A stretch of 64,000 nt of DNA. Origin: Candidatus Yanofskybacteria bacterium. GTDB lineage: Bacteria > Patescibacteriota > Minisyncoccia > 2-02-FULL-40-12 > GWA2-44-9. How positions within the stretch are numbered: position 1 is the first letter of the stretch; each line of letters opens with the position of its first letter. Under the pieces are notes generated by a model. The model ran no database searches and was not told where the DNA came from. It was given only the letters and a program-made list of their open reading frames with translations. The stretch lies in the NCBI GenBank assembly GCA_020847715.1, contig JADLBM010000014.1, positions 14,420 to 78,419 on the forward strand, given 5' to 3'. The translations under genes were made by a program, and so were the position numbers. Positions 17,081-63,227 of this stretch are shown one piece after another.

Positions 17081-17623
17081 ATGGCATCCACTGACACCAC
17101 CAACCTGCAGGAACCGACGACCAATCCGACCTTTGTGGACACCGTCCGCGAGGAGGATGATATCGATCTCGGTCCCGTGACGCTCGAAGAGCTCCCCGAG
17201 GGTGCTCGCGAGAAGTACTTCGAAGCCGTCGGCCGCCGCAAGGAGGCTGTTGCCCGCGTCCGCTTGATGACCCGCAAGTCCGGCGATCCGGCGACCGAGG
17301 ATGCCGCACTCATGACGGTCAACGGCAAGGACTATGCCGCATACTTTTTGGATAAGAACCTCATTCTCCGCGTCGAGCAGCCGCTCCGCCGCCTGAAGTC
17401 GCTCCAGCGCTTCAAGGTGAGCGCAAGGGTGCAGGGTGGTGGTATCTCCGGACAGGCTGATGCGGTTCGCCACGGTATCTCCCGCACGCTCGAGCTCTTC
17501 GACGCGAACTTCCGCAAGAAGCTCAAGAAGGCAGGATTCCTCACCCGCGACTCCCGCAAGGTGGAGCGCAAGAAGCCGGGGCTCAAAAAAGCACGAAAAG
17601 GACCCCGCTGGGCGAAACGATAA
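17081..17623 (+). CDS. rpsI: 30S ribosomal protein S9 (with an N-terminal extension)
   Basis: C-terminal GGGISGQADAVRHGISRTL…KKPGLKKARKGPRWAKR is canonical S9. Start re-set to MASTDTT. Confidence 0.9.
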   Translation: MASTDTTNLQEPTTNPTFVDTVREEDDIDLGPVTLEELPEGAREKYFEAVGRRKEAVARVRLMTRKSGDPATEDAALMTVNGKDYAAYFLDKNLILRVEQPLRRLKSLQRFKVSARVQGGGISGQADAVRHGISRTLELFDANFRKKLKKAGFLTRDSRKVERKKPGLKKARKGPRWAKR

Positions 17624-17658
17624 CATTCTGGCGATCTGCATTGTTGCAGGTCCGCGAT

Positions 17659-17682
17659 GGCCGACCTTCTGGGTCGGCTTTT
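17659..17682 (+). terminator. rho-independent terminator after rpsI (gccgacc-ttct-gggtcggc-tttt)
   Basis: Hairpin plus T-run directly after the S9 stop. Confidence 0.55.
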
Positions 17683-17915
17683 CGCACGACCCGGTCGGCA
17701 TCGCTCTCCGGTCCTCCCTCACCGTATGCCCGATACGGCTCGGTTCGGTCCTCGCCTGCGCCTCGCATCTCATCCAGAATGTTACGTTTCGGAAGATGCT
17801 CACCACTCGCTCGGACCTCGTCGGGGTCGAAGCGGATTTATCGCTGATTGAGAAAAGCGCGTAGAATGGTTGTAAGCCATTCTACGGTGCGGTATAACGG
17901 TGACGGAGGTGAGGG

Positions 17916-18134
17916 ATGCCAAGCTACGGCATACAGTACCTGGCGGACTACGAGGAGCTCGGGAAGACGACGGAGCGGGTCATTTTTCAGGCAAGAGACG
18001 ACCGGCGAGCTATCCGCAGTTTCTGTCGACGTGCGGCCAACCTGCGTTGCAGACGCGACAACATCGAGGGCGAGATTTTCCTGTTTCGCCTCAATCGTCG
18101 ACACACTGACGGCACCAGAATCGCTATCGCCTAA
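17916..18134 (+). CDS. small hypothetical protein (72 aa): first cassette of the small-gene island
   Basis: Strong SD (ACGGAGGTGAGGG) 5 nt before the ATG. Followed by a terminator at 18141..18168. Confidence 0.4.
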   Translation: MPSYGIQYLADYEELGKTTERVIFQARDDRRAIRSFCRRAANLRCRRDNIEGEIFLFRLNRRHTDGTRIAIA

Positions 18135-18140
18135 CACGTT

Positions 18141-18168
18141 GGCAGAGCCCTTCCCGGGCTCTTTTTAC
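18141..18168 (+). terminator. rho-independent terminator (gagccc-ttcc-cgggctc-ttttt)
   Basis: Perfect hairpin plus T5. Confidence 0.6.
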
Positions 18169-18189
18169 TGCCATTGCCAGCCCCGCTGC

Positions 18190-18495
18190 AGAGTGATAGT
18201 ATTCTAACGCGACTGGAAAGTCTCTGGCGGGGCTGGGGGAAGACTCCAAGAACCCAAGGTCAGCCGTTGGAGTACAGGGACGAGAGGGGATTGCTTCGTA
18301 CGCGAGGCAATAGCCCAGACTGGTAGCTAAGGCAGCTAATCCGGCAGGACCGGAGCCGAAGCTCCAGAGTCGGGGACTTAGACTCCCTACGGGAGTGCAC
18401 TCCGTATAGGGAAGTCCGGACTTAGTCCTCCGCACCAACCGACTGGTACAGTCGCTTCGTACACGCCCGCGCTTCGGCTCGGGCGTCTTTTTATT
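18190..18495 (+). ncRNA. candidate structured non-coding RNA (~300 nt), class unknown. Ends in an intrinsic terminator (cgcccgcgcttcggctcgggcg + T5).
   Basis: No credible ORF on either strand. Bounded by two terminators. Many local hairpins (ggagc-cgaa-gctcc, ctccc-tac-gggag, cgactg-gta-cagtcg, attgc…gcaat). Contains GGAAAGUC and GGGAAGUCCGGAC strings. Confidence 0.35.
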
Positions 18496-18546
18496 TGCAT
18501 ATTTACTTTCTCGAAGATTAGTGGTATAAAAGCTGCGGAGGCTCCT

Positions 18547-18771
18547 ATGAGCATTTTGGGTAGATTCAGTGCATCGGCGTTGCTGTTGTTCAGTGCGGGT
18601 CTTTTCTCCGGTGTGATGCAGAGTCAATGGAGCGCCGCAGGGCGCCTCATGGTCGGCATCGTCTGTATCGGGTGCTTCGGCATGACCATCGCGAATGAGG
18701 TGATTTCCGCGATTCGCGACTCAAAGCGAGAGGGGTCAGCGGGTGCCGGGGATACCGCAGGCATCAAGTAG
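18547..18771 (+). CDS. small hypothetical membrane protein (74 aa)
   Basis: SD GCGGAGG. Two hydrophobic helices. Own promoter-like TATAAA upstream. Confidence 0.45.
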   Translation: MSILGRFSASALLLFSAGLFSGVMQSQWSAAGRLMVGIVCIGCFGMTIANEVISAIRDSKREGSAGAGDTAGIK

Positions 18772-18840
18772 GCGCAACTCGCATGCGAGTTCTGAGTCCG
18801 CCCCGCGGACTCTTTTCTTCCCAATTTCCGGAGGTGAGAA

Positions 18841-19005
18841 GTGGATCTCGTTCTGAACTGCGAGCTGTGCGGGGATTCGATGGTCGTCACGGAGCTCCTG
18901 AGGTGTCCGAACTGCGGACTAAGCGTCGCGCTCTGCGAGGATTGCATCAGCGAGCACGATTGCGTGGCCGCGCAGGAGGAGCTCGAAGCGCGCGAGTGCG
19001 AGTAG
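18841..19005 (+). CDS. small Cys-rich zinc-ribbon protein (54 aa; CELC…CPNC…CEDC)
   Basis: GTG start 6 nt after GGAGG. Two CxxC pairs. Below the ORF-track size cutoff; the overlapping listed ORF 18783..19010 is Arg-rich off-frame. Confidence 0.4.
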   Translation: MDLVLNCELCGDSMVVTELLRCPNCGLSVALCEDCISEHDCVAAQEELEARECE

Positions 19006-19021
19006 GGTGAGTCACTGTCTT

Positions 19022-19050
19022 CCCGAGCCCACGCATGTGGGCTCTTTTTC
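19022..19050 (+). terminator. terminator (gagcccac-gca-tgtgggctc + T5); family member also at 21379..21410
   Basis: Perfect hairpin plus T-run. Near-identical copy downstream of the 21108 gene. Confidence 0.6.
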
Positions 19051-19100
19051 ATTGACATTTCCTATATAATTTTGCACAATAGCCATCGGAGGATACCCAA

Positions 19101-19343
19101 ATGGAGCAGCTCCTTGCGCAATTGGCTCAGTTCATGGACCCGCAAGACCACGATCTCGACACGTTCAAGCTCGAACGACTCGTCGCGGCGCTCAAGAAGG
19201 CGCGGGAGGCGCGGCTACACGTGACGGTGGATCTCCAGCTTGTGCGGGTGGTCGTCATCAAGACGCCCGAAACGGCGGGCGCTGCGGAGGCGCTTCGGCA
19301 GGAGATGGCCGTGATGGACATGCTCGACATGCTGCGCTCCTAG
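19101..19343 (+). CDS. small hypothetical protein (80 aa, helical/acidic)
   Basis: SD CGGAGGA. Followed by a hairpin terminator at 19352..19378. Confidence 0.45.
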   Translation: MEQLLAQLAQFMDPQDHDLDTFKLERLVAALKKAREARLHVTVDLQLVRVVVIKTPETAGAAEALRQEMAVMDMLDMLRS

Positions 19344-19449
19344 CGCTACCGACCGGAGATGCTGTCTCCGGTTTTTTGTTTGAAGCTTGCTCGGGTTTTG
19401 TATTTGGCAAAGAAGGCTAAGCGTGGTACAACAACGGCGGAGGTGAGGT

Positions 19450-19884
19450 ATGGAGCGAAGCCGCGTTGTGGTGACATCTCGGTACGGGGGTCAACTCGAA
19501 TGCACCTTTGATGGATACCGTCAGGAACCCGAACGGCTGGGTCCCGATGGAGCCCCGGAGAAGGTTGTGCAGTGGCGGGGGACGGGCGTTCTCGTTGATA
19601 ATGGCAGACGCTTTCCGTTCCTATTTACCACCGAACCCGAGCATGACCACCGATTCTACGCGCTTCGTGCTGCGGTGATTGCGATCCGGGACGACCGAGG
19701 CAATCGCCGGAATCCGATGTTCGTGTTCAACTGGCTCTCGATCGAGACGGATGTCGTCGAAACCATCCGATGGATGCTGAGATCGCGAATGGAAGAAGTG
19801 CTTCCGACCATTCGCATTCCTTCGCTTTCGGCAACCGCCCTCATGATGCGCGGCCTGATCTCGACGATTGACCGCATCACATAA
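19450..19884 (+). CDS. hypothetical protein (144 aa)
   Basis: SD GGCGGAGGTGAGG before the ATG. No recognisable motif. Confidence 0.5.
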   Translation: MERSRVVVTSRYGGQLECTFDGYRQEPERLGPDGAPEKVVQWRGTGVLVDNGRRFPFLFTTEPEHDHRFYALRAAVIAIRDDRGNRRNPMFVFNWLSIETDVVETIRWMLRSRMEEVLPTIRIPSLSATALMMRGLISTIDRIT

Positions 19885-19942
19885 TCCCCATGAGGCTTGG
19901 CAGGAAGATTGCGTTGCGGTAATATTGCGGTAGAGGTGTGAG

Positions 19943-20002
19943 ATGAAGAAAGCAAAGACCCGAAAGGTGAAGACGCGACGGAAGGTTCGGATTCTGCGCT
20001 GA
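19943..20002 (+). CDS. possible 19-aa basic micro-protein (MKKAKTRKVKTRRKVRILR)
   Basis: Read by eye. SD GAGGTGTGAG before the ATG. Immediately followed by a dedicated terminator at 20016..20044. Confidence 0.25.
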   Translation: MKKAKTRKVKTRRKVRILR

Positions 20003-20015
20003 CCCAGCGCCACGA

Positions 20016-20044
20016 CCGAGGTTTACCCTCGGTCTTTTCTTTTC
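20016..20044 (+). terminator. terminator (ccgaggtttaccctcgg + tcttttcttttc); repeat family also at 21009..21035 and 22127..22156
   Basis: Hairpin plus T-run. Three near-identical copies, each ending a cassette. Confidence 0.6.
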
Positions 20045-20080
20045 GGGAGCGCACTGGTATAACCACCTCGGAGGTGTGAG

Positions 20081-20407
20081 ATGCAAATGGTTCTTTCAGA
20101 AGCCGAAAGTCGGGCAAATCTGCTTAGGAGGTTCATAAGCATTCGCCCAGGCATGCTGTTTTCCTACCAGAAAGAGGGCGACTCCTCGCTGAAGCATCGA
20201 TTCTGTATTGCCATCAAGCAGTCGGGATCGCTGAGCTGGACTGTCGTCGAGCTGACGCGCGGGAACCGTGAGAAAATCACGAAGGGCCTGCCGTGCCGGC
20301 GCACCGACCTGAGCGCCTTCTCCATGTCGTGCATGAACATACCCGACACAACCGGGTACACGCGAAAAGCGCTCGCCGAGCTCGCTGGCGCCTCTGGGCG
20401 GAAGTGA
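20081..20407 (+). CDS. hypothetical protein (108 aa)
   Basis: SD CGGAGGTGTGAG. First of a contiguous three-gene operon. Confidence 0.45.
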   Translation: MQMVLSEAESRANLLRRFISIRPGMLFSYQKEGDSSLKHRFCIAIKQSGSLSWTVVELTRGNREKITKGLPCRRTDLSAFSMSCMNIPDTTGYTRKALAELAGASGRK

Positions 20408-20410
20408 CGC

Positions 20411-20731
20411 ATGGAACGCGCATTCAGTGAGCAAGAGCGGCAGGAGGCAAAGCGGAGGCTCCTCGCATACCTGCGCGAGATGCCTGATGACGGGAAGTGC
20501 TGTGTGTCGTGTACCTGCGGCCAGCACTCCTATACGGTCGCCGACCTCATTCAGGCGGTCGAACAGGAGACGGGCGAGGGGAAGAACCTCATCAGCCTCT
20601 TCCTTGAGGAAGACTTCCTTGAGACGGATGAGCTGCCGGTTCCAGATCCGCCACGGTCATTCTTCGGCCGTCTCTGGGACTCACTCAGGAGCCTCCGCGT
20701 TCCCGTGGAGGACAAGCACATCAAGCCGTGA
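20411..20731 (+). CDS. hypothetical protein (106 aa; CCVSCTCGQH Cys cluster)
   Basis: Starts 4 nt after the previous stop. No recognisable family. Confidence 0.45.
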   Translation: MERAFSEQERQEAKRRLLAYLREMPDDGKCCVSCTCGQHSYTVADLIQAVEQETGEGKNLISLFLEEDFLETDELPVPDPPRSFFGRLWDSLRSLRVPVEDKHIKP

Positions 20732-21003
20732 GCGACCGCGCGAGCGCCGATGAGTATGCGGAGATTGTCAGGAGGGCGCGAGCGATTTTTCTCGAGGCGT
20801 ATACCCGTTCTGATGGAAGCGTGCGAACACGCCCTGTGCCGATCGCCTGCTCCGATCACGACGGCATTCTTGCCATGAACGTATTCGTGGCGACAGGTCT
20901 GTTCGAGCTTGCCGTTCAGGCAGACCAGCCTCCCGATGGTTCGTGTCGGCTTTTCCGAATCACGACCGCAGGCATCGAGTTTGCTGAGCTGACGAAGTCG
21001 TAG
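20728..21003 (+). CDS. hypothetical protein (91 aa)
   Basis: Start overlaps the previous stop by 4 nt. Terminator follows at 21009..21035. Confidence 0.45.
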   Translation: MSDRASADEYAEIVRRARAIFLEAYTRSDGSVRTRPVPIACSDHDGILAMNVFVATGLFELAVQADQPPDGSCRLFRITTAGIEFAELTKS

Positions 21004-21107
21004 TCTGACCGAGGTTTACCCTCGGTCTTTTCTTATCTGAAATAGACTCACGTGGAGCCTATTTACAAAATATATAAATGTAGTATTATAAAGACAAGGA
21101 GGTGCGC

Positions 21108-21371
21108 ATGGAGCAAGTCAGCTCAGCGGGGCAGCGTCCCACCAGCAGCATCGAAGGCGTTTCGACGAACCTGTCGCCTGAGGAATTCGCGGAGGTGATG
21201 CAGGCTGTCCGCGACGAGCGTGTCGTGTGGGACCTCTCGAAGGCGGTCTTCCTTCCTTTCGCGTGTGCAGGGGAGTTTGCCTCCGGAGAGTTCGTCCACA
21301 AGGGGCAGCGCTACCGGTTCACGGAGTCGTGGGAATCTCCGACGACCCTCATGCAGATCCGCGAGACCTAG
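21108..21371 (+). CDS. hypothetical protein (88 aa)
   Basis: SD GGAGGTGCGC before the ATG. Terminator at 21379..21410. Confidence 0.45.
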   Translation: MEQVSSAGQRPTSSIEGVSTNLSPEEFAEVMQAVRDERVVWDLSKAVFLPFACAGEFASGEFVHKGQRYRFTESWESPTTLMQIRET

Positions 21372-21446
21372 ACCGTTTCCCGAGCCCACGCTGTGGGCTC
21401 TTTTCTTTTCTGGAACATATTGCAGAATAGGTACGGAGGTGGGCAT

Positions 21447-22119
21447 GAGGATAGAAGAGTTGGTCGAGCTGCTGCGCGTTCGTGGCACCCGTGGGTTGGC
21501 GGTCGACATCGACGAAACCCTGTCGGACTCCAACCGGCACTGGTTCGACGCCATGTTCGCATTCGCCCGTCCGCACGGGAAGTCGCGCGACGACATCATG
21601 CGCGACCACAAGTTCGTCGAGGATGTGCCTGAGTGGCGCACGCCGGAGGCACGCGCGCGCATTCACGCGCTCCTACACTCCAACGAGTTCTGCACTGACA
21701 TCCCCGTTATCTCCGGCGCGCTGGAAGGGGCGTGGAGGGTCCACCTAATGGCGCGTATCGCCGCGTACATCACTGCCCGACCCGAAGCCGTCCGTCAGGG
21801 GACACTGCAGTGGCTCAAGCACCGAGGGTTTCCTGAGGCGCCCATCATCATGCGGGATGAAGATGTCGACCTGTCCGCCCACAACGACGGGAAGAACGGG
21901 TGGAAGGCGCGCATGCTTTCGGCCGCATACCCCTTCATCCTCGGTATCGTGGACGACAACGCCGGACTCACGCGAGCGCTCCGCGCTGTGAACTATGCGG
22001 GCACGCTGTTTCTGTACGGTCCCCAGTGGCAACCGGTGAACGCCAGTCCGAGCGTGATACTCTGTCCGACATGGAATGATGTCTCACAGGCGATACACCT
22101 GCGCTCCTGCGCATGGTAG
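21447..22119 (+). CDS. HAD-superfamily hydrolase, 5'(3')-deoxyribonucleotidase (NT5C)-like
   Basis: Motif I GLAVDIDETL (DxDxT) near the N-terminus. Start re-set to MRIEELV after the SD ACGGAGGTGGGC. Confidence 0.55.
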
Positions 22120-22206
22120 CTCTCGACCGAGGCTCACCCCTCGGTCTTTTCTTTTCTAAAATATGTGGTATTATGTGTCTGTTCGTTTCCAATGAAAGGG
22201 GAACCA

Positions 22207-22947
22207 ATGCTGCAAGGCATGTTGGCGGCCGCGCTCGGCGCGGCTACGGGAACGGTTCTGGCGCTCATGATGGGCGCGCTGTGGCCGCTGGGCACCCTTC
22301 TGGGTGGCTTGGTCGGCTATCTCTCGTACAACACTCGCGAGGTCGCCGAGGCGACCCGACGGGCTCTTTCGGAGGTCCCGTGGCGCGTCTTCGCTCGGCG
22401 ATGGCCTGCGCTTCTGTGGAGCGTTCTCGCATTCACCTGTATCTCGCAGACCGTTGCCGTTCTGGTCTGGCCCTTCATGCATGAGATTGGGGTGCAGACC
22501 CCCGGTGTCATCTGGCGGATCCTTGTGGTTGCGACCCTCTTCGGCCCGTTGCCCGGCTTTTTTGGCGGTGTCGCCGCCATGATTGACCCCGATCCCACGA
22601 GTGTCTGGAGCTCCACCAAGCTTTACCGCTGGATGGCCATCAACCTGAACCTCGTCGTGCTCGCGTTCTACTGGGCTCCCGTCCTGCTCTTCCGTACGGC
22701 CAAGTGGTTGTTCGGAGTGCTCCAGCTCGGCATTCTCGCGATGCGCATCTGCGCGATGATGGCTCCACACATCCTCCGCGATGTGTACAGCGAGAAGCGG
22801 CTCATCGCCGGTCTCTCGGCGTTCCAAGGGGCGGTCATCGGCTACCTCGCCCACGACTGGGTCTTTGCGGGTGTCGCCGGCCTGTCGTTCTTCGTACTGC
22901 AGGTGAGCTTCATCCACCGACGCCTCGCGCCGCAGCAGGGGTGGTGA
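22207..22947 (+). CDS. hypothetical polytopic membrane protein (~246 aa)
   Basis: Six or more hydrophobic helices. Start re-set to MLQGML. Confidence 0.5.
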   Translation: MLQGMLAAALGAATGTVLALMMGALWPLGTLLGGLVGYLSYNTREVAEATRRALSEVPWRVFARRWPALLWSVLAFTCISQTVAVLVWPFMHEIGVQTPGVIWRILVVATLFGPLPGFFGGVAAMIDPDPTSVWSSTKLYRWMAINLNLVVLAFYWAPVLLFRTAKWLFGVLQLGILAMRICAMMAPHILRDVYSEKRLIAGLSAFQGAVIGYLAHDWVFAGVAGLSFFVLQVSFIHRRLAPQQGW

Positions 22948-22948
22948 C

Positions 22949-23356
22949 ATGATTACCACCTACGCCGTCGTCGGCGCTTTCGCGCTCTGGTACGCCTACT
23001 TCGGAACCGAATACTACCTGAACGGTGGAGCCCTCGGCCGAGGCCCCAGTCTCATGCCGTTTCAGTGTTTCTGGGACGAAGTCCGCCAAAACATCCCGGG
23101 AGGGTTGACCCGCAAGGCAGCCTTCATCCGCGAGCTTGCCGCACTGAAGCCCCATGGCGCCATCGTCGGGCGTCGTCGCGTCTGGCGGTATGCCGATGTT
23201 GCGGCTCACAGCCTCTACCGCGAGTGCGCGGCCGATGTGCTTCGAGGTTCGATTGAGTTCTGGGCAACGGTCGTTGGGGTTGTGAGTGTTGGCGCCATGC
23301 TCGGCATCGGCCTCAGCCTACTGCTCAAAGACGCACTCCACCTTCTGCTGTCGTAG
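22949..23356 (+). CDS. hypothetical membrane protein (135 aa)
   Basis: Translationally coupled to the previous gene (TGAcATG). Terminator at 23365..23398. Confidence 0.5.
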   Translation: MITTYAVVGAFALWYAYFGTEYYLNGGALGRGPSLMPFQCFWDEVRQNIPGGLTRKAAFIRELAALKPHGAIVGRRRVWRYADVAAHSLYRECAADVLRGSIEFWATVVGVVSVGAMLGIGLSLLLKDALHLLLS

Positions 23357-23364
23357 TACACCAC

Positions 23365-23398
23365 ACACCTCATGCAATACGCATGAGGTGTTTTCTTT
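23365..23398 (+). terminator. terminator (cacctcatgc-aatacg-catgaggtg + ttttc)
   Basis: 10-bp stem plus T-run. Ends the small-gene island. Confidence 0.55.
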
Positions 23399-23431
23399 AC
23401 AACAACGCCCCGGTGAGGGGGCGTAGAGGGG

Positions 23432-23926
23432 CTAGGCTTTTGGTAGGTCATCATCGTCTCTGACCCGTCGAGTAGCTTCCTCAAGGTCGGGAGAATCGTC
23501 CCGTTCTTCGCTGTTGCCAAGCCTTGCTGCCATGTCGCAGACACGTTCGTCGATGGCAAGGTCGCATCCAGTAGCGGCCGCGATGGCAATTCCATCAGCA
23601 TCAGAAGTGTTCTGCGTCCATCGAGTGTTACCCTGTGCGAAGCGCACCACGGACATGGAGTCGTCGTCCCCGTTCGGAACGATGGCGACTCGCTCGACAC
23701 GGACATCGAATCGCTTGAGCAGATGAACGGTCAATCCGTGACACACAGGAAACTCGTATGAGCTTGTGTGTTTGACTTGCTGCGCCGCCGCGCGAATAAG
23801 CGCGACAACCTCTTCGCCGAAGTACATATTAAGTTGCCTCGATCCACTCACCTCATGGAGTACAATGAGCGGCTCTCCTGTTTGCGCGTGCCTTCCGATT
23901 GCAACGATCTTGAAAAGGATCTCCAT
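23432..23926 (-). CDS. bifunctional nuclease (BFN/DUF151) family protein
   Basis: IVLHEVSGSRQLNMYFGEEVVALIRAA…DGIAIAAATGCDLAIDERV matches the BFN-domain pattern. Confidence 0.7.
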   Translation of the reverse strand: MEILFKIVAIGRHAQTGEPLIVLHEVSGSRQLNMYFGEEVVALIRAAAQQVKHTSSYEFPVCHGLTVHLLKRFDVRVERVAIVPNGDDDSMSVVRFAQGNTRWTQNTSDADGIAIAAATGCDLAIDERVCDMAARLGNSEERDDSPDLEEATRRVRDDDDLPKA

Positions 23927-23981
23927 CCCACCCTCCTCTGTACGAGCCTAGGAAAGAATCCGGAACCCGTCAATGCCACGA

Positions 23982-24770
23982 CTAGAGCTTAATAATGTTC
24001 ACGCCGCCCCGCGTATCGATTTCGAGAATGCGGTAGCTCTGGCTGCCGAGATCAATCACAATGTGGTCGCGGCCACGGAACCACGCGGCGCGACGGATAG
24101 GCACCGAAAGGCGCGTAATCTGCTGGCGATCTCCCTCAGTGTGGAACGGCTGGTAGTCGGTGTTGCGGAGCCACAGCACAAAGACATCGTTTCGCGTCCA
24201 CCAGAGAATACGGCTGTTGTCGGTGGGGCGTGCGAATCCCAGCACCGATTCCGCAACGATGGAGGCAGATGCCGCATCGGTACGCCAGAGCGTCGTGCCC
24301 TTGAGCGTGAAGATGCCATCAGCCACACCGACTGCTGCCTTGTGTGGCTCAGATGAAAGTCGCGCAAGCGAGAGCGAAGCCGACGCTTCGTGCTTAAGAT
24401 CGATGACCGATTCGTCATCGAGAGGTAGAAGCATGACCGAAGGGAAATCAGTCAGGAAGCCCTCCTGCACAATTGCTTCTTTTCGCCATGTCGAGTGCCC
24501 GTCGCGCGAGAGGCGCACCTGGTAGGTGCCGGGGAGGAGGCGATCCTGCCCCGCACGATTGCCGAGGAACGAGGTCGAACCGCTCAGCTGGTCGTCTACG
24601 AAAAGCTCAGCTGATGTATTGACTGTTACCGCGATAGCTCCGGTGCGAACAAACTGGCCAGCGTTCCAATCGTAGGCGTAGCCCTGGGCATACCGGATGA
24701 CCACCCACGTAGCGACCGCAAACACGACAACTGCAATCCAAAAGAGGATCCTTCGCGTCCGTTTCTTCAT
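23982..24770 (-). CDS. hypothetical membrane-anchored protein
   Basis: Start re-set to MKKRTRRILFW, then a TM helix and a ~230-aa extracytoplasmic part. Confidence 0.5.
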   Translation of the reverse strand: MKKRTRRILFWIAVVVFAVATWVVIRYAQGYAYDWNAGQFVRTGAIAVTVNTSAELFVDDQLSGSTSFLGNRAGQDRLLPGTYQVRLSRDGHSTWRKEAIVQEGFLTDFPSVMLLPLDDESVIDLKHEASASLSLARLSSEPHKAAVGVADGIFTLKGTTLWRTDAASASIVAESVLGFARPTDNSRILWWTRNDVFVLWLRNTDYQPFHTEGDRQQITRLSVPIRRAAWFRGRDHIVIDLGSQSYRILEIDTRGGVNIIKL

Positions 24771-24832
24771 GTCCCAAGTATACCGCATCCGCGTATTGAA
24801 ATATAGGCGAAATACCGCTATATTCAGGCGCA

Positions 24833-25837
24833 ATGACCCGCAAGATCGGCATCGACCTTGGCACCACAAATACCGTCGTTTTCACGCCGAAGAAGGGCAT
24901 CGTCATCAACGAGCCATCGGTTGTCGCTGTTTCAGTGCTCGATAACAAAATCCTTGCGGTCGGCAATGCGGCGAAGGATATGATTGGCCGCACACCCGAC
25001 AGCATCACCATCGTTCGTCCGCTCATTGATGGGGCGGTTGCCGATTACCGCGTAACCGGAGCGATGCTCCGGTACTTCATCAAGAAGGCGAGCGGCGTGT
25101 TCAATCTCCTCAAGCCGGAAGTGCTCGTATCGGTACCCGCGGGCATCACGAGCGCTGAGAAGCGCGCCGTTATCGAGAGCACGCTCGGTGCTGGCGCAAA
25201 AGCAGTCTACCTCGTAAAGGAGCCGGTGCTTGCCGCCATCGGTGCGCAAATTCCCATCAACAGCCCTATCGGCAACATGATCCTTAACATCGGCGGAGGA
25301 ACCACGGAGCTCGCCGTTATCTCGTTGGGCGGCATCGTATCCGCAAAGTCAGTTCGCGTCGGTGGGAACAAGTTCGACCTCGCCATCGTCGAGTACATCA
25401 AAAAGAAGCACGGCCTTGCGGTAGGGGAGCGCACCGCGGAGCTCATTAAGATCAATATCGGCAGCGCACTCCGCGGCACCCATGAGGATTCACTGAATGT
25501 GAAGGGTCGCGACCTTACGACCGGCCTTCCGAAGACCGTGCAGGTCACGAGCAACGAGGTCACTGAGGCGCTGGGAGAGCACCTGCGTGAGATTGTGCAG
25601 ATTATCAAGGGCGTACTCGAGATGACGCCTCCTGAGCTTTGCTCGGACATTATGGATCGCGGCATTATCATCTCCGGCGGCGGCGCCCTCCTCCGCGACA
25701 TTGCCGACCTCATCACGAAGGTGACGGGTGTTCCGGCACGTGTCGCGACCGACCCACTCTTCTGTGTTGCGCGCGGCACCGGAAAGGTGCTCGAGAACCT
25801 CGAGACCTACAAACGCAACGTCATCGCGAAGCGGTAG
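24833..25837 (+). CDS. mreB: rod-shape-determining protein MreB
   Basis: Actin-fold motifs GIDLGTTNT… of the MreB family. Confidence 0.9.
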   Translation: MTRKIGIDLGTTNTVVFTPKKGIVINEPSVVAVSVLDNKILAVGNAAKDMIGRTPDSITIVRPLIDGAVADYRVTGAMLRYFIKKASGVFNLLKPEVLVSVPAGITSAEKRAVIESTLGAGAKAVYLVKEPVLAAIGAQIPINSPIGNMILNIGGGTTELAVISLGGIVSAKSVRVGGNKFDLAIVEYIKKKHGLAVGERTAELIKINIGSALRGTHEDSLNVKGRDLTTGLPKTVQVTSNEVTEALGEHLREIVQIIKGVLEMTPPELCSDIMDRGIIISGGGALLRDIADLITKVTGVPARVATDPLFCVARGTGKVLENLETYKRNVIAKR

Positions 25838-62972: not shown

Positions 62973-62980
62973 CGCCTCAT

Positions 62981-63003
62981 TGCCCCGACGGGGTTCCTGC
63001 AGG
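62981..63003 (-). other. tRNA-derived fragment (CCCCGACGGG+GTTCCTGC = tRNA 3' acceptor and anticodon-stem segments, T-loop deleted)
   Basis: An 11-mer and an 8-mer identical to segments of the tRNA at 63221..63259, in the same orientation, ~220 bp from the tRNA. Confidence 0.4.
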
Positions 63004-63127
63004 CATGAAGCAGTTCATGCCCTCGGATACCCTTCAAATCCATGCGACGGGATTTCTCTTCCTCCGCCACTCTCGGGTCGCTTCACGACAACCTCCGTGG
63101 CTTCCCCAGAGCCCGGGTCTCTCGAAC

Positions 63128-63227
63128 GCCAAGCAGTTGGCGCTCTCGCGTACCCTTCAAATCCCGAGGGGTTCAATATACGAAAAGACATCCACATGTA
63201 TGGATGTCTTTTCGTATTTGTAGCCCC
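63128..63227 (+). repeat. right direct repeat (R2): TTGGCGCTCTCGCGTaCCCTTCAAATCC, a 14-bp hairpin (cgaaaagacatcca/tggatgtcttttcg), then tATTTGTAGCCCC running into the tRNA 3' end
   Basis: See R1. The hairpin also serves as the tRNA's terminator when read on the minus strand. Confidence 0.55.

Follow-up and report, generated by a model that had tools for sequence, protein, structure and literature searches.

Positions 18169 to 18495 of a 64,000-nucleotide stretch of Candidatus Yanofskybacteria DNA (the window, whose numbering is used throughout) form a non-coding segment that carries promoter and terminator motifs, has a predicted fold, lies in an island of small genes and stands outside all known RNA families. 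The reading put forward here, with somewhat less than even confidence, is that the segment may be a strain-specific, independently transcribed small RNA (sRNA) gene of the plus strand. It belongs to no described family and is in kind an ordinary stand-alone sRNA candidate. In the proposed scheme, a sigma-70-type extended −10 promoter (18174–18202) would start transcription near G18209 and the transcript would stop at a strong intrinsic terminator (18463–18496). The first seven nucleotides would pair with seven nucleotides upstream of the terminator, closing a multi-branched core of ∼233 nt with at least three stable arms. The unit would be one cassette in the row of promoter–gene–terminator cassettes that fill a hotspot downstream of rpsI, and the RNA would most likely act in trans, in a regulatory or protein-binding role, for the island or the host. 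Possible interaction sites are segments rich in CUCC/CCUCC and the palindrome AAGUCCGGACUU.

Plus-strand intrinsic terminators are found on both sides of the segment by terminator scan and by reading of the sequence, in agreement with an initial annotation made from the sequence alone, which had described the region as bounded by two of them. On the minus strand, neither hairpin is followed by a U-tract (sequence reading). Terminator-like sites are abundant in the surrounding 3 kb, with 11 found versus 2.8 expected from shuffled sequences. A promoter-like site at the left of the segment shows nine of 12 hexamer matches plus a TG extension in the promoter scan, and its position predicts a transcription start near G18209; the same scan lists no promoter-like site on the minus strand between 17000 and 20000. 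The tRNA-His and tRNA-Glu genes of the window have promoters of the same design as this site, TTGnnn-17-(TGn)TATAAT (TTGCGT-17-TGgTATAAT and TTTGCA ... TATAAT). The organism thus uses sigma-70-type promoters, which makes the site at 18174–18202 credible. On an operational definition, the segment has the features of a stand-alone bacterial sRNA gene: a promoter and an intrinsic terminator of its own, both on the plus strand, and no coding potential. The elements that delimit the unit are as follows.

18144–18167, plus strand: terminator of the upstream 72-amino-acid gene (17916–18134) and left edge of the unit, AGAGCCC-ttccc-GGGCTCT (18144–18162) followed by TTTTT (terminator scan).
18174–18202, plus strand: promoter-like site with −35 TTGCCA (18174–18179), a 17-nt spacer, TG at 18194–18195 and −10 TAGTAT (18197–18202).
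18177–18236, no strand assigned: 12-bp inverted repeat CCAGCCCCGCUG / UGGCGGGGCUGG, with the −10 box and predicted start between its arms (stem enumeration; minimum free energy (MFE) structure of 18170–18495).
18209–18495, plus strand: predicted non-coding transcript of ∼285 nt, with the start placed from the promoter and the end at the terminator U-tract.
18463–18496, plus strand: right-hand intrinsic terminator, ACGCCCGcGC-ttcg-GCtCGGGCGT (18463–18486), then CTTTTTATTT (terminator scan).
18463–18472 / 18477–18486, plus strand: the same terminator as RNA, a stem with a UUCG loop, then CUUUUUAUUU (pair probability 0.98).

The predicted transcript would hold only the right arm of the inverted repeat, which is possibly an operator or a stem in a read-through RNA.

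No coding function is apparent. The only open reading frames (ORFs) in the segment are one of 50 amino acids on the plus strand, with a TTG start, and three on the minus strand of 167, 46 and 55 amino acids. A codon log-odds model for which 22 long ORFs from the window served as training set (mean +0.38 bits per codon) gives negative values in all six frames and for every one of these ORFs, between −0.16 and −0.36 bits per codon; small genes of the island score 0.00 to +0.44 by the same model. The 327 nt of the segment contain no ATG and no Shine–Dalgarno (SD) or GGAGG-type motif. Absence of ATG is found in 1.5% of windows of the same size across the 64 kb, and has P = 0.15 when calculated from the segment's own dinucleotides. 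The initial annotation had likewise seen no credible ORF and had described the long minus-strand frame as Arg-rich and running across both terminators; this is the 167-amino-acid ORF, and its codon score is negative.

The RNA is predicted to fold into a multi-arm structure of about 285 nt closed by a terminal helix, termed P1. Plus-strand MFE values correspond to z = −3.3 for 18170–18495 and z = −2.9 for 18207–18495 relative to shuffled sequences, and the minus strand gives z = −4.8. When MFE is corrected for GC content by regression over every 290-nt window in the 64 kb, the plus strand ranks 27th of 1275 in stability. The signal for structure is genuine, though of moderate strength, and other regions of the window are more structured. 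Pair probabilities in the following list were derived from the partition function of 18209–18495.

18209–18215, plus strand: 5′ strand of P1, GCGACUG, paired with 18449–18455 (probability 0.99–1.0; also in the MFE structure).
18449–18455, plus strand: 3′ strand of P1, CAGUCGC, 7 nt before the terminator stem.
18211–18222, plus strand: possible hairpin GACU-GGAA-AGUC holding the GGAAAGUC motif, read from the sequence and absent from the MFE structures.
18218–18228 / 18369–18379, plus strand: possible long-range helix AAGUCUCUGGC / GUCGGGGACUU of 11 bp with three G-U pairs (probability 0.40–0.46).
18290–18311, plus strand: 9-bp hairpin AUUGCUUCG-UACG-CGAGGCAAU, the most stable internal arm (probability 0.98).
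18320–18367, plus strand: composite arm CUGG/CCAG, AGCU/AGCU, GGC/GCC, UCCGG-CAGGA-CCGGA (probability about 0.8).
18384–18412, plus strand: arm UCCCUA/UAGGGA with the cap GGAG-UGCA-CUCC (probability about 0.85).

P1, a perfect helix of 7 bp, brings the predicted +1 together with the terminator base; the chance of this arrangement is p ∼0.01 by our own rough estimate. The 5′ arm of the GACU-GGAA-AGUC hairpin overlaps P1, so the two are mutually exclusive. Three hairpins listed by the initial annotation are present, namely ggagc-cgaa-gctcc (18352–18365), ctccc-tac-gggag (18384–18396) and cgactg-gta-cagtcg (18440–18454), as are its two sequence motifs, GGAAAGTC at 18215–18222 and GGGAAGTCCGGAC at 18409–18421. 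Short internal repeats also occur: GCTTCGTACrCG is found twice, and GGACTTAG and CGACTGG were each seen twice by eye.

Comparison with known RNA families yielded no assignment. With Rfam 15, the whole window shows only two tRNAs at gathering score. At E ≤ 10, in nested ranges of 1001 and 336 nt, only terminator look-alikes (SorY, SorX, sX6 and a Leu leader) and noise from mammalian long non-coding RNAs are found; the weak SorY, SorX and sX6 matches align to the terminator hairpin alone. There is no covariance-model match to 6S, signal recognition particle RNA (SRP), OLE, HEARO, GOLLD, ROOL, raiA, T-box or riboswitch families. For tmRNA, Rfam is blank and ARAGORN detects just the two tRNAs in the window. 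The description of the region as an unclassified non-coding RNA, which the initial annotation had proposed to check against Rfam, is therefore upheld for RNase P, tmRNA, 6S, SRP, OLE and HEARO.

The ribosomal protein S9 places the window in the Patescibacteria, or candidate phyla radiation (CPR), near Paceibacteria-type metagenome-assembled genomes; the S9 proteins of the best species representatives are 85% and 82% identical. Synteny with a related locus (L002) is kept to the stop codon of rpsI and returns at 23974, with 6.3 kb between these points here and an unrelated 2.9 kb in L002. Relatives whose S9 is 83–96% identical hold differing cargo at the site: RadC in L082, an SDH protease, a PIN protein and an EcoRI methylase in L147, a type IIG restriction-modification enzyme plus GmrSD in L085 and L086, and hypothetical proteins in L148. 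The relative with 96% identity in S9 diverges straight after the rpsI stop codon. As the cargo differs in every relative, the interval 17640–23970, from rpsI to a conserved gene of 295 amino acids (23982–24869, minus strand), is a hypervariable cargo hotspot.

Within the island, neighbouring genes each carry their own promoter/SD module and terminator, and form a row of promoter–payload–terminator cassettes. The block GGTAyAAC-N6-GGAGGTG-N4-ATG, which combines promoter, SD and start codon, occurs three times (17891–17918, 19425–19452 and 20056–20083), with a fourth variant at 18522–18549. The cassette of the RNA candidate is the only one in the island without an SD and start codon. The fourth variant, which has the common form GGTAyAAn-N6-GGAGG, belongs to the gene directly downstream, which encodes a membrane protein of 74 amino acids (18547–18771).

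18503–18546, plus strand: promoter/ribosome-binding-site module of the 74-amino-acid membrane protein gene, TTTACT-16-TGgTATAAA and agctgc-GGAGG-ctcct-ATG (sequence reading).

The promoter hexamer of this gene ends in A, and it was therefore not listed by the promoter scan. Because the gene has a module of its own, it is argued that the RNA is not simply its leader. Searches with ten island proteins against Pfam, PHROGs and PADLOC gave no noteworthy assignment and revealed no mobile-element, reverse transcriptase, TnpB/IscB, Cas or toxin–antitoxin partner, and thus nothing that suggests a retron, omega-RNA, bridge RNA or tracrRNA. Eight small island proteins, including the 72-amino-acid neighbour, have no homologues in a collection of 5.8 billion proteins, and a PDB sequence search with that neighbour found nothing.

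Several other features of the island were noted. Two of its terminators, at 20014–20044 and 21007–21037, are 97% identical over 31 nt. The plus-strand gene of 72 amino acids (17916–18134) has an SD, a promoter module and a terminator, and its codon bias is weak, 0.07 bits per codon; a minus-strand ORF of 99 amino acids (17838–18137) overlaps it and has a summed codon score of 9.8 bits versus about 5. Cumulative GC skew peaks at ∼20000–24000, positive before and negative after, with gene orientation unchanged. The island is therefore located at a GC-skew switch, which is possibly the replication terminus or a rearrangement breakpoint.

RNase P RNA was considered separately. In 10 of 35 circular CPR genomes it came to light only at a lowered threshold, and the CPR forms often lack helices (Lui et al., PMC8172020). 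Since they are known to escape Rfam, RNase P was tested directly. The Rfam models (types A and B, archaeal and type T) give no match on either strand at gathering score in the window or at E ≤ 10 in ranges of 1001 and 336 nt; over 4227 families this limit corresponds to a per-family E of about 0.002, and scores of a few bits would not show. A reference set was formed from 57 loci with RNase P RNAs, obtained by P4-motif scans of IMG/VR, in which natural molecules go down to 255–300 nt; the smallest recovered are 255–275 nt (L137–L140). An nhmmer profile of the 57 RNAs has its best match in the whole window here, on the minus strand.

18398–18441, minus strand: the sole RNase P-like segment, GCGGAGGAcuAAGUCCGGACUUCCCUAUACGGAGUG, similar to conserved region I (CR-I), which is the 5′ strand of P4, and the start of P5.

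The match scores 2.4 bits, with E = 0.86 for the whole window and E = 0.0085 for 600 nt. Alignment of CR-I (GAGGAAAGUCCGG) with minus-strand 18431–18411 (GGAGGAcuAAGUCCGGACU) involves a 2-nt insertion. The segment includes the palindrome AAGUCCGGACUU, which contains the second motif of the initial annotation on the plus strand (18409–18421). On the plus strand itself, CR-I is represented only by GGAAAGUC (18215–18222) and by GGGAAGUCCGGAC, the other face of the palindrome. Both motifs had been said to recall faintly the P4 strands of RNase P RNA; this suggestion is not supported, as neither motif is a P4 strand and the other defining RNase P elements are missing. The GGAAAGUC motif can be drawn as the loop and 3′ arm of the possible GACU-GGAA-AGUC hairpin, and GGGAAGUCCGGAC is part of the palindrome, whose best CR-I reading lies on the opposite strand. 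What remains is an isolated CR-I-like palindrome whose significance is borderline.

In a full-length glocal Viterbi alignment to the 57-RNA profile, neither strand improves on shuffled sequence (z = −0.02 for the plus strand and 1.5 for the minus strand relative to 300 shuffles). A glocal profile of the C-domain only, with the S-domain allowed as a free insertion, scores the minus strand at −1.4 bits; this is z = 4.2–5.5 relative to shuffles, first among 1274 windows and higher than anything outside RNase P RNAs in 951 kb from other loci. With the same profile, a genuine rnpB (L034) reaches 100 bits and full-length RNase P RNAs outside the training set 33–124 bits. In the traceback, CR-I, on which the choice of the region had been based, accounts for 27 bits, and the CR-IV-like GAAGCAAUCC, which sits locked in the 9-bp hairpin at 18290–18311, for 10 bits; CR-V is essentially deleted. 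CR-V is the 3′ strand of P4 (ACAGAAnnCGGCUUA), which pairs with CR-I around a bulged U and leads straight into the 3′ strand of P1, and its CCGGCUU positions are those deleted in the Viterbi traceback; the best manual candidate, CCAGAGACUUUC, forms 5 bp with no bulge and is without the conserved ACAGAA. A custom Infernal model (R1), built from 17 RNase P C-domains and used to look for CR-IV/J5-15, P15 and J18/2, gives no match with E ≤ 10 at 18150–18500 on either strand, and scores 14.5–68 bits on six held-out divergent RNase P RNAs. J5/15, P15, J18/2 and a bulged-U P4 are absent from the traceback and by eye. There is no room for P3, as the gap from P1 to CR-I is 18 nt on the minus strand and nil on the plus strand, and the S-domain motifs (J11/12 ACAGAGA, GUGAAA/GUAAGG) are absent from the strand that carries CR-I. 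Colinear plus-strand matches to RNase P made by eye (ACAGGGACGAG, GUAGCUAAGGCAGC and CCGGAGC) found no support in objective scores (z = −0.02 and 0.48) and were discarded. Permissive chaining gave no information, as its noise averaged 65 bits. The segment was accordingly rejected as an RNase P RNA, with a CR-I-like match as its sole likeness, the other elements missing, R1 blank and the transcription signals on the opposite strand.

Three further observations concern RNase P sequences elsewhere. The genuine rnpB mentioned above lies at L034:11900–12232 (plus strand) in a SAR86 locus, ∼6 kb downstream of rpsI. Many of the IMG/VR ‘viral’ contigs (L089–L146) have an RNase P RNA gene as their exact end point, a pattern that would fit a role of rnpB as attachment site for prophages. 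On the minus strand near the 72-amino-acid gene, words similar to CR-IV/CR-V are found, GCAACGCA and CGACAGAA at ∼18050–18010 and GGCUUACAAC at 17878–17868; these are probably due to chance.

An identical copy of the sequence is present in an independent public assembly, a 1155-nt Logan contig (L081, from SRR35280560), which was the only match of an exact-protein look-up. This counts in favour of the sRNA gene, since the sequence did not arise as an artefact in the assembly of a single data set; at 100% identity, the copy offers no comparative information. A number of results weigh against an sRNA gene. No diverged homologue of the RNA was found among 95 related or control loci by nhmmer and blastn, and none in phage and plasmid collections by BLAST. 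Three pattern scans of viral sequences (IMG/VR) and two of JGI metagenomes, with patterns derived from the RNA, were empty, as was a word-indexed search of the six translated frames against 5.8 billion proteins; phmmer with the minus-strand ORF against 1.84 billion representatives gave a single match, an artefact from a tandem-repeat protein. The segment is an orphan in one genome. Conservation or covariation in relatives was the initial annotation's own measure, and the sequence is absent from every relative searched, so that the one way to demonstrate function by computation is lost. This absence weakens the claim of function, though it is expected for cargo of such a hotspot and a strain-specific RNA is not disproved by it. 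In addition, the minus strand folds equally well or better than the plus strand, and the plus-strand fold, of moderate strength, is no extreme outlier at rank 27 of 1275. DNA of 59% GC can yield promoter-like hexamers and hairpins by chance, and in an island with fast turnover an orphan may be a cassette in decay and not a functional gene. For the independently transcribed, structured RNA that the initial annotation had envisaged, a promoter and P1 are now predicted in addition to the terminator, and the fold is moderately stable; transcription, the exact ends and any function are inferred.

The segment might instead be a non-functional remnant, a decayed cassette derived from a former small gene or from part of an RNA gene (e.g. 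rnpB) that has kept its terminator and has a chance promoter-like site, any transcript being noise. This is unlikely but deserves serious consideration. The whole island is an orphan, its eight small proteins included, the different cargo in every relative implies rapid turnover, the fold signal is moderate, the internal short repeats suggest scrambled sequence, and the CR-I-like fragment is isolated, with the rest of RNase P missing. However, coding bias is kept in no frame, and the segment looks organised rather than decayed, as it is wholly free of ATG and SD, has a canonically designed promoter and is closed by P1, a helix of 7 bp with no mismatch. It is rather improbable that the segment is a cis-acting leader of the 74-amino-acid gene, a riboswitch-like element or attenuator in which P1 would close a sensor and the terminator would decide read-through into 18547–18771. 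The layout is classical, with a P1 domain, 7 nt, a terminator, ∼50 nt, an SD and an ATG that all lie on one strand, and GAGCCGAAGC (18353–18362) is perfectly complementary over 10 bp to the terminator loop and 3′ arm (18471–18480) and could anti-terminate. This candidate anti-terminator, however, pairs with the 3′ arm and not the 5′ arm of the terminator, an arrangement that is kinetically unfavourable in attenuators; stem enumeration found no stem that competes for the 5′ arm, and part of the complementarity simply follows from the presence of two near-palindromic CGAA/UUCG hairpins. A leader is also disfavoured by the gene's TGgTATAAA-N6-GGAGG module, identical in design to those of three other island genes, and by the lack of a riboswitch, T-box or leader family match in Rfam.

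That the minus strand, from 18455 down to 18209, encodes a minimal or highly diverged RNase P RNA, or a relic of rnpB that is transcribed, is very improbable. Such an RNA would have P1 (GCGACUG/CAGUCGC), P2 (GGUUGG/CCAGCC), CR-I as GGAGGAcuAAGUCCGG, P5 (CUUC/GAAG) and a shortened P4 (AAGUC/GACUU), and by eye the order P1, CR-I ... CAGAGACUUUC, P1′ mimics RNase P. The low detectability and missing helices of CPR RNase P RNAs (PMC8172020), the existence of natural molecules of 255–275 nt, the position of the window's best profile match and the top rank of the C-domain score all speak for it. Against this, the C-domain score is negative in absolute terms and its 27 bits come from CR-I alone, the full-length z is just 1.5, R1 and Rfam are blank, the CR-IV-like sequence is locked in a hairpin, and CR-V, J5/15, P15, J18/2, P3, a bulged-U P4 and the S-domain motifs are absent. 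Both promoter and terminator belong to the plus strand. Moreover, an essential RNA is not expected in a strain-specific island, and the segment is missing from the syntenic interval and 6–10 kb flanks of relatives with S9 82–96% identical. Extremely doubtful, too, is an RNA built around the CR-I/P4 look-alike, either as a minimised RNase P derivative without P3, S-domain and canonical CR-V, or as an antisense RNA in which plus-strand 18405–18441 would pair with CR-I/P4-P5 (GAGGAAAGUCCGGACUUCC) of the host RNase P RNA. If the antisense version were true, a mobile island would titrate or modulate host tRNA processing.

Two other structured elements of the window were noted. At 17697–17765 (plus strand), about 75–140 nt past the rpsI stop codon, a non-coding element of ∼60 nt is kept in three other lineages, with identities of 86% in L003, 82% in L082 and 79% in L084, and all sequence beyond it differs. 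Its central hairpin shows compensatory change (CCGUAU..AUACGG / CCGUAC..GUACG / CCCUAC..GUAGGG) and has CCUCC-rich arms at its sides; the range 17601–17940 ranks fourth of 1275 windows in fold stability, and Rfam gives only C/D-box noise for the element. It may be a conserved 3′ untranslated-region element of rpsI, an sRNA or the fixed edge of the hotspot. The window's most stable fold (GC-corrected z = −4.7) lies at 62973–63220 on the minus strand, downstream of tRNA-Glu and its terminator. It holds two direct repeats of ∼40 nt, each GGAUUUGAAGGGUAnnCGAGnGC followed by a hairpin, at 63163–63126 and 63040–63001, and has no Rfam match.

If transcribed, the sRNA candidate would be among very few candidate regulatory RNAs in the Patescibacteria, whose non-coding RNA repertoire is almost unknown, and would be an RNA carried on a fast-evolving cargo hotspot beside a ribosomal-protein cluster. 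As a single-genome orphan at present, its worth is that of a target for metatranscriptomics, not of a discovery. Given the aberrant RNase P RNAs of this phylum, the RNase P reading is tempting and plausible, yet it fails direct tests and represents a useful negative.

The candidate can be compared with three known systems. As in type A RNase P RNA (RF00010, with diverged CPR forms, PMC8172020), the 5′ end is tied to the 3′ end by a terminal helix, a CR-I-like motif occurs on each strand, as GGAGGAcuAAGUCCGGACUUCC (minus) and GGAAAGUC (plus), and the size is near that of the smallest natural examples (255–275 nt), in a host phylum whose RNase P RNAs evade standard detection. It differs in having no CR-IV/CR-V, P3, canonical bulged-U P4 or S-domain motifs, in the promoter and terminator lying on the strand opposite CR-I, in the non-conserved island and in the lack of model support beyond CR-I. 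With riboswitches and leader attenuators it shares a P1-closed domain placed directly before a terminator and upstream of a co-oriented small gene; unlike them, it has a separate promoter module between terminator and gene, belongs to no known family of aptamers, is not conserved and shows no anti-terminator that would convincingly oppose the 5′ arm. Trans-acting bacterial sRNAs with an intrinsic terminator, among which SorY (RF02651), SorX (RF02784) and sX6 (RF02225) gave the weak Rfam matches, resemble it in their stand-alone promoter, absence of an ORF and 3′ GC-rich hairpin with U-tract, although sequence similarity to those three is confined to the terminator hairpin. Compared with typical base-pairing sRNAs, the ∼285-nt candidate is larger and more compact, with a closed multi-arm structure, and no target or chaperone is identifiable; RNAduplex comparison with ten island 5′ regions was uninformative, and the single case with z = −3.1 pairs with promoter DNA upstream of the start. 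As with trans-acting sRNAs, nevertheless, its C-rich/CUCC motifs could pair with GGAGG, the SD used throughout the island.

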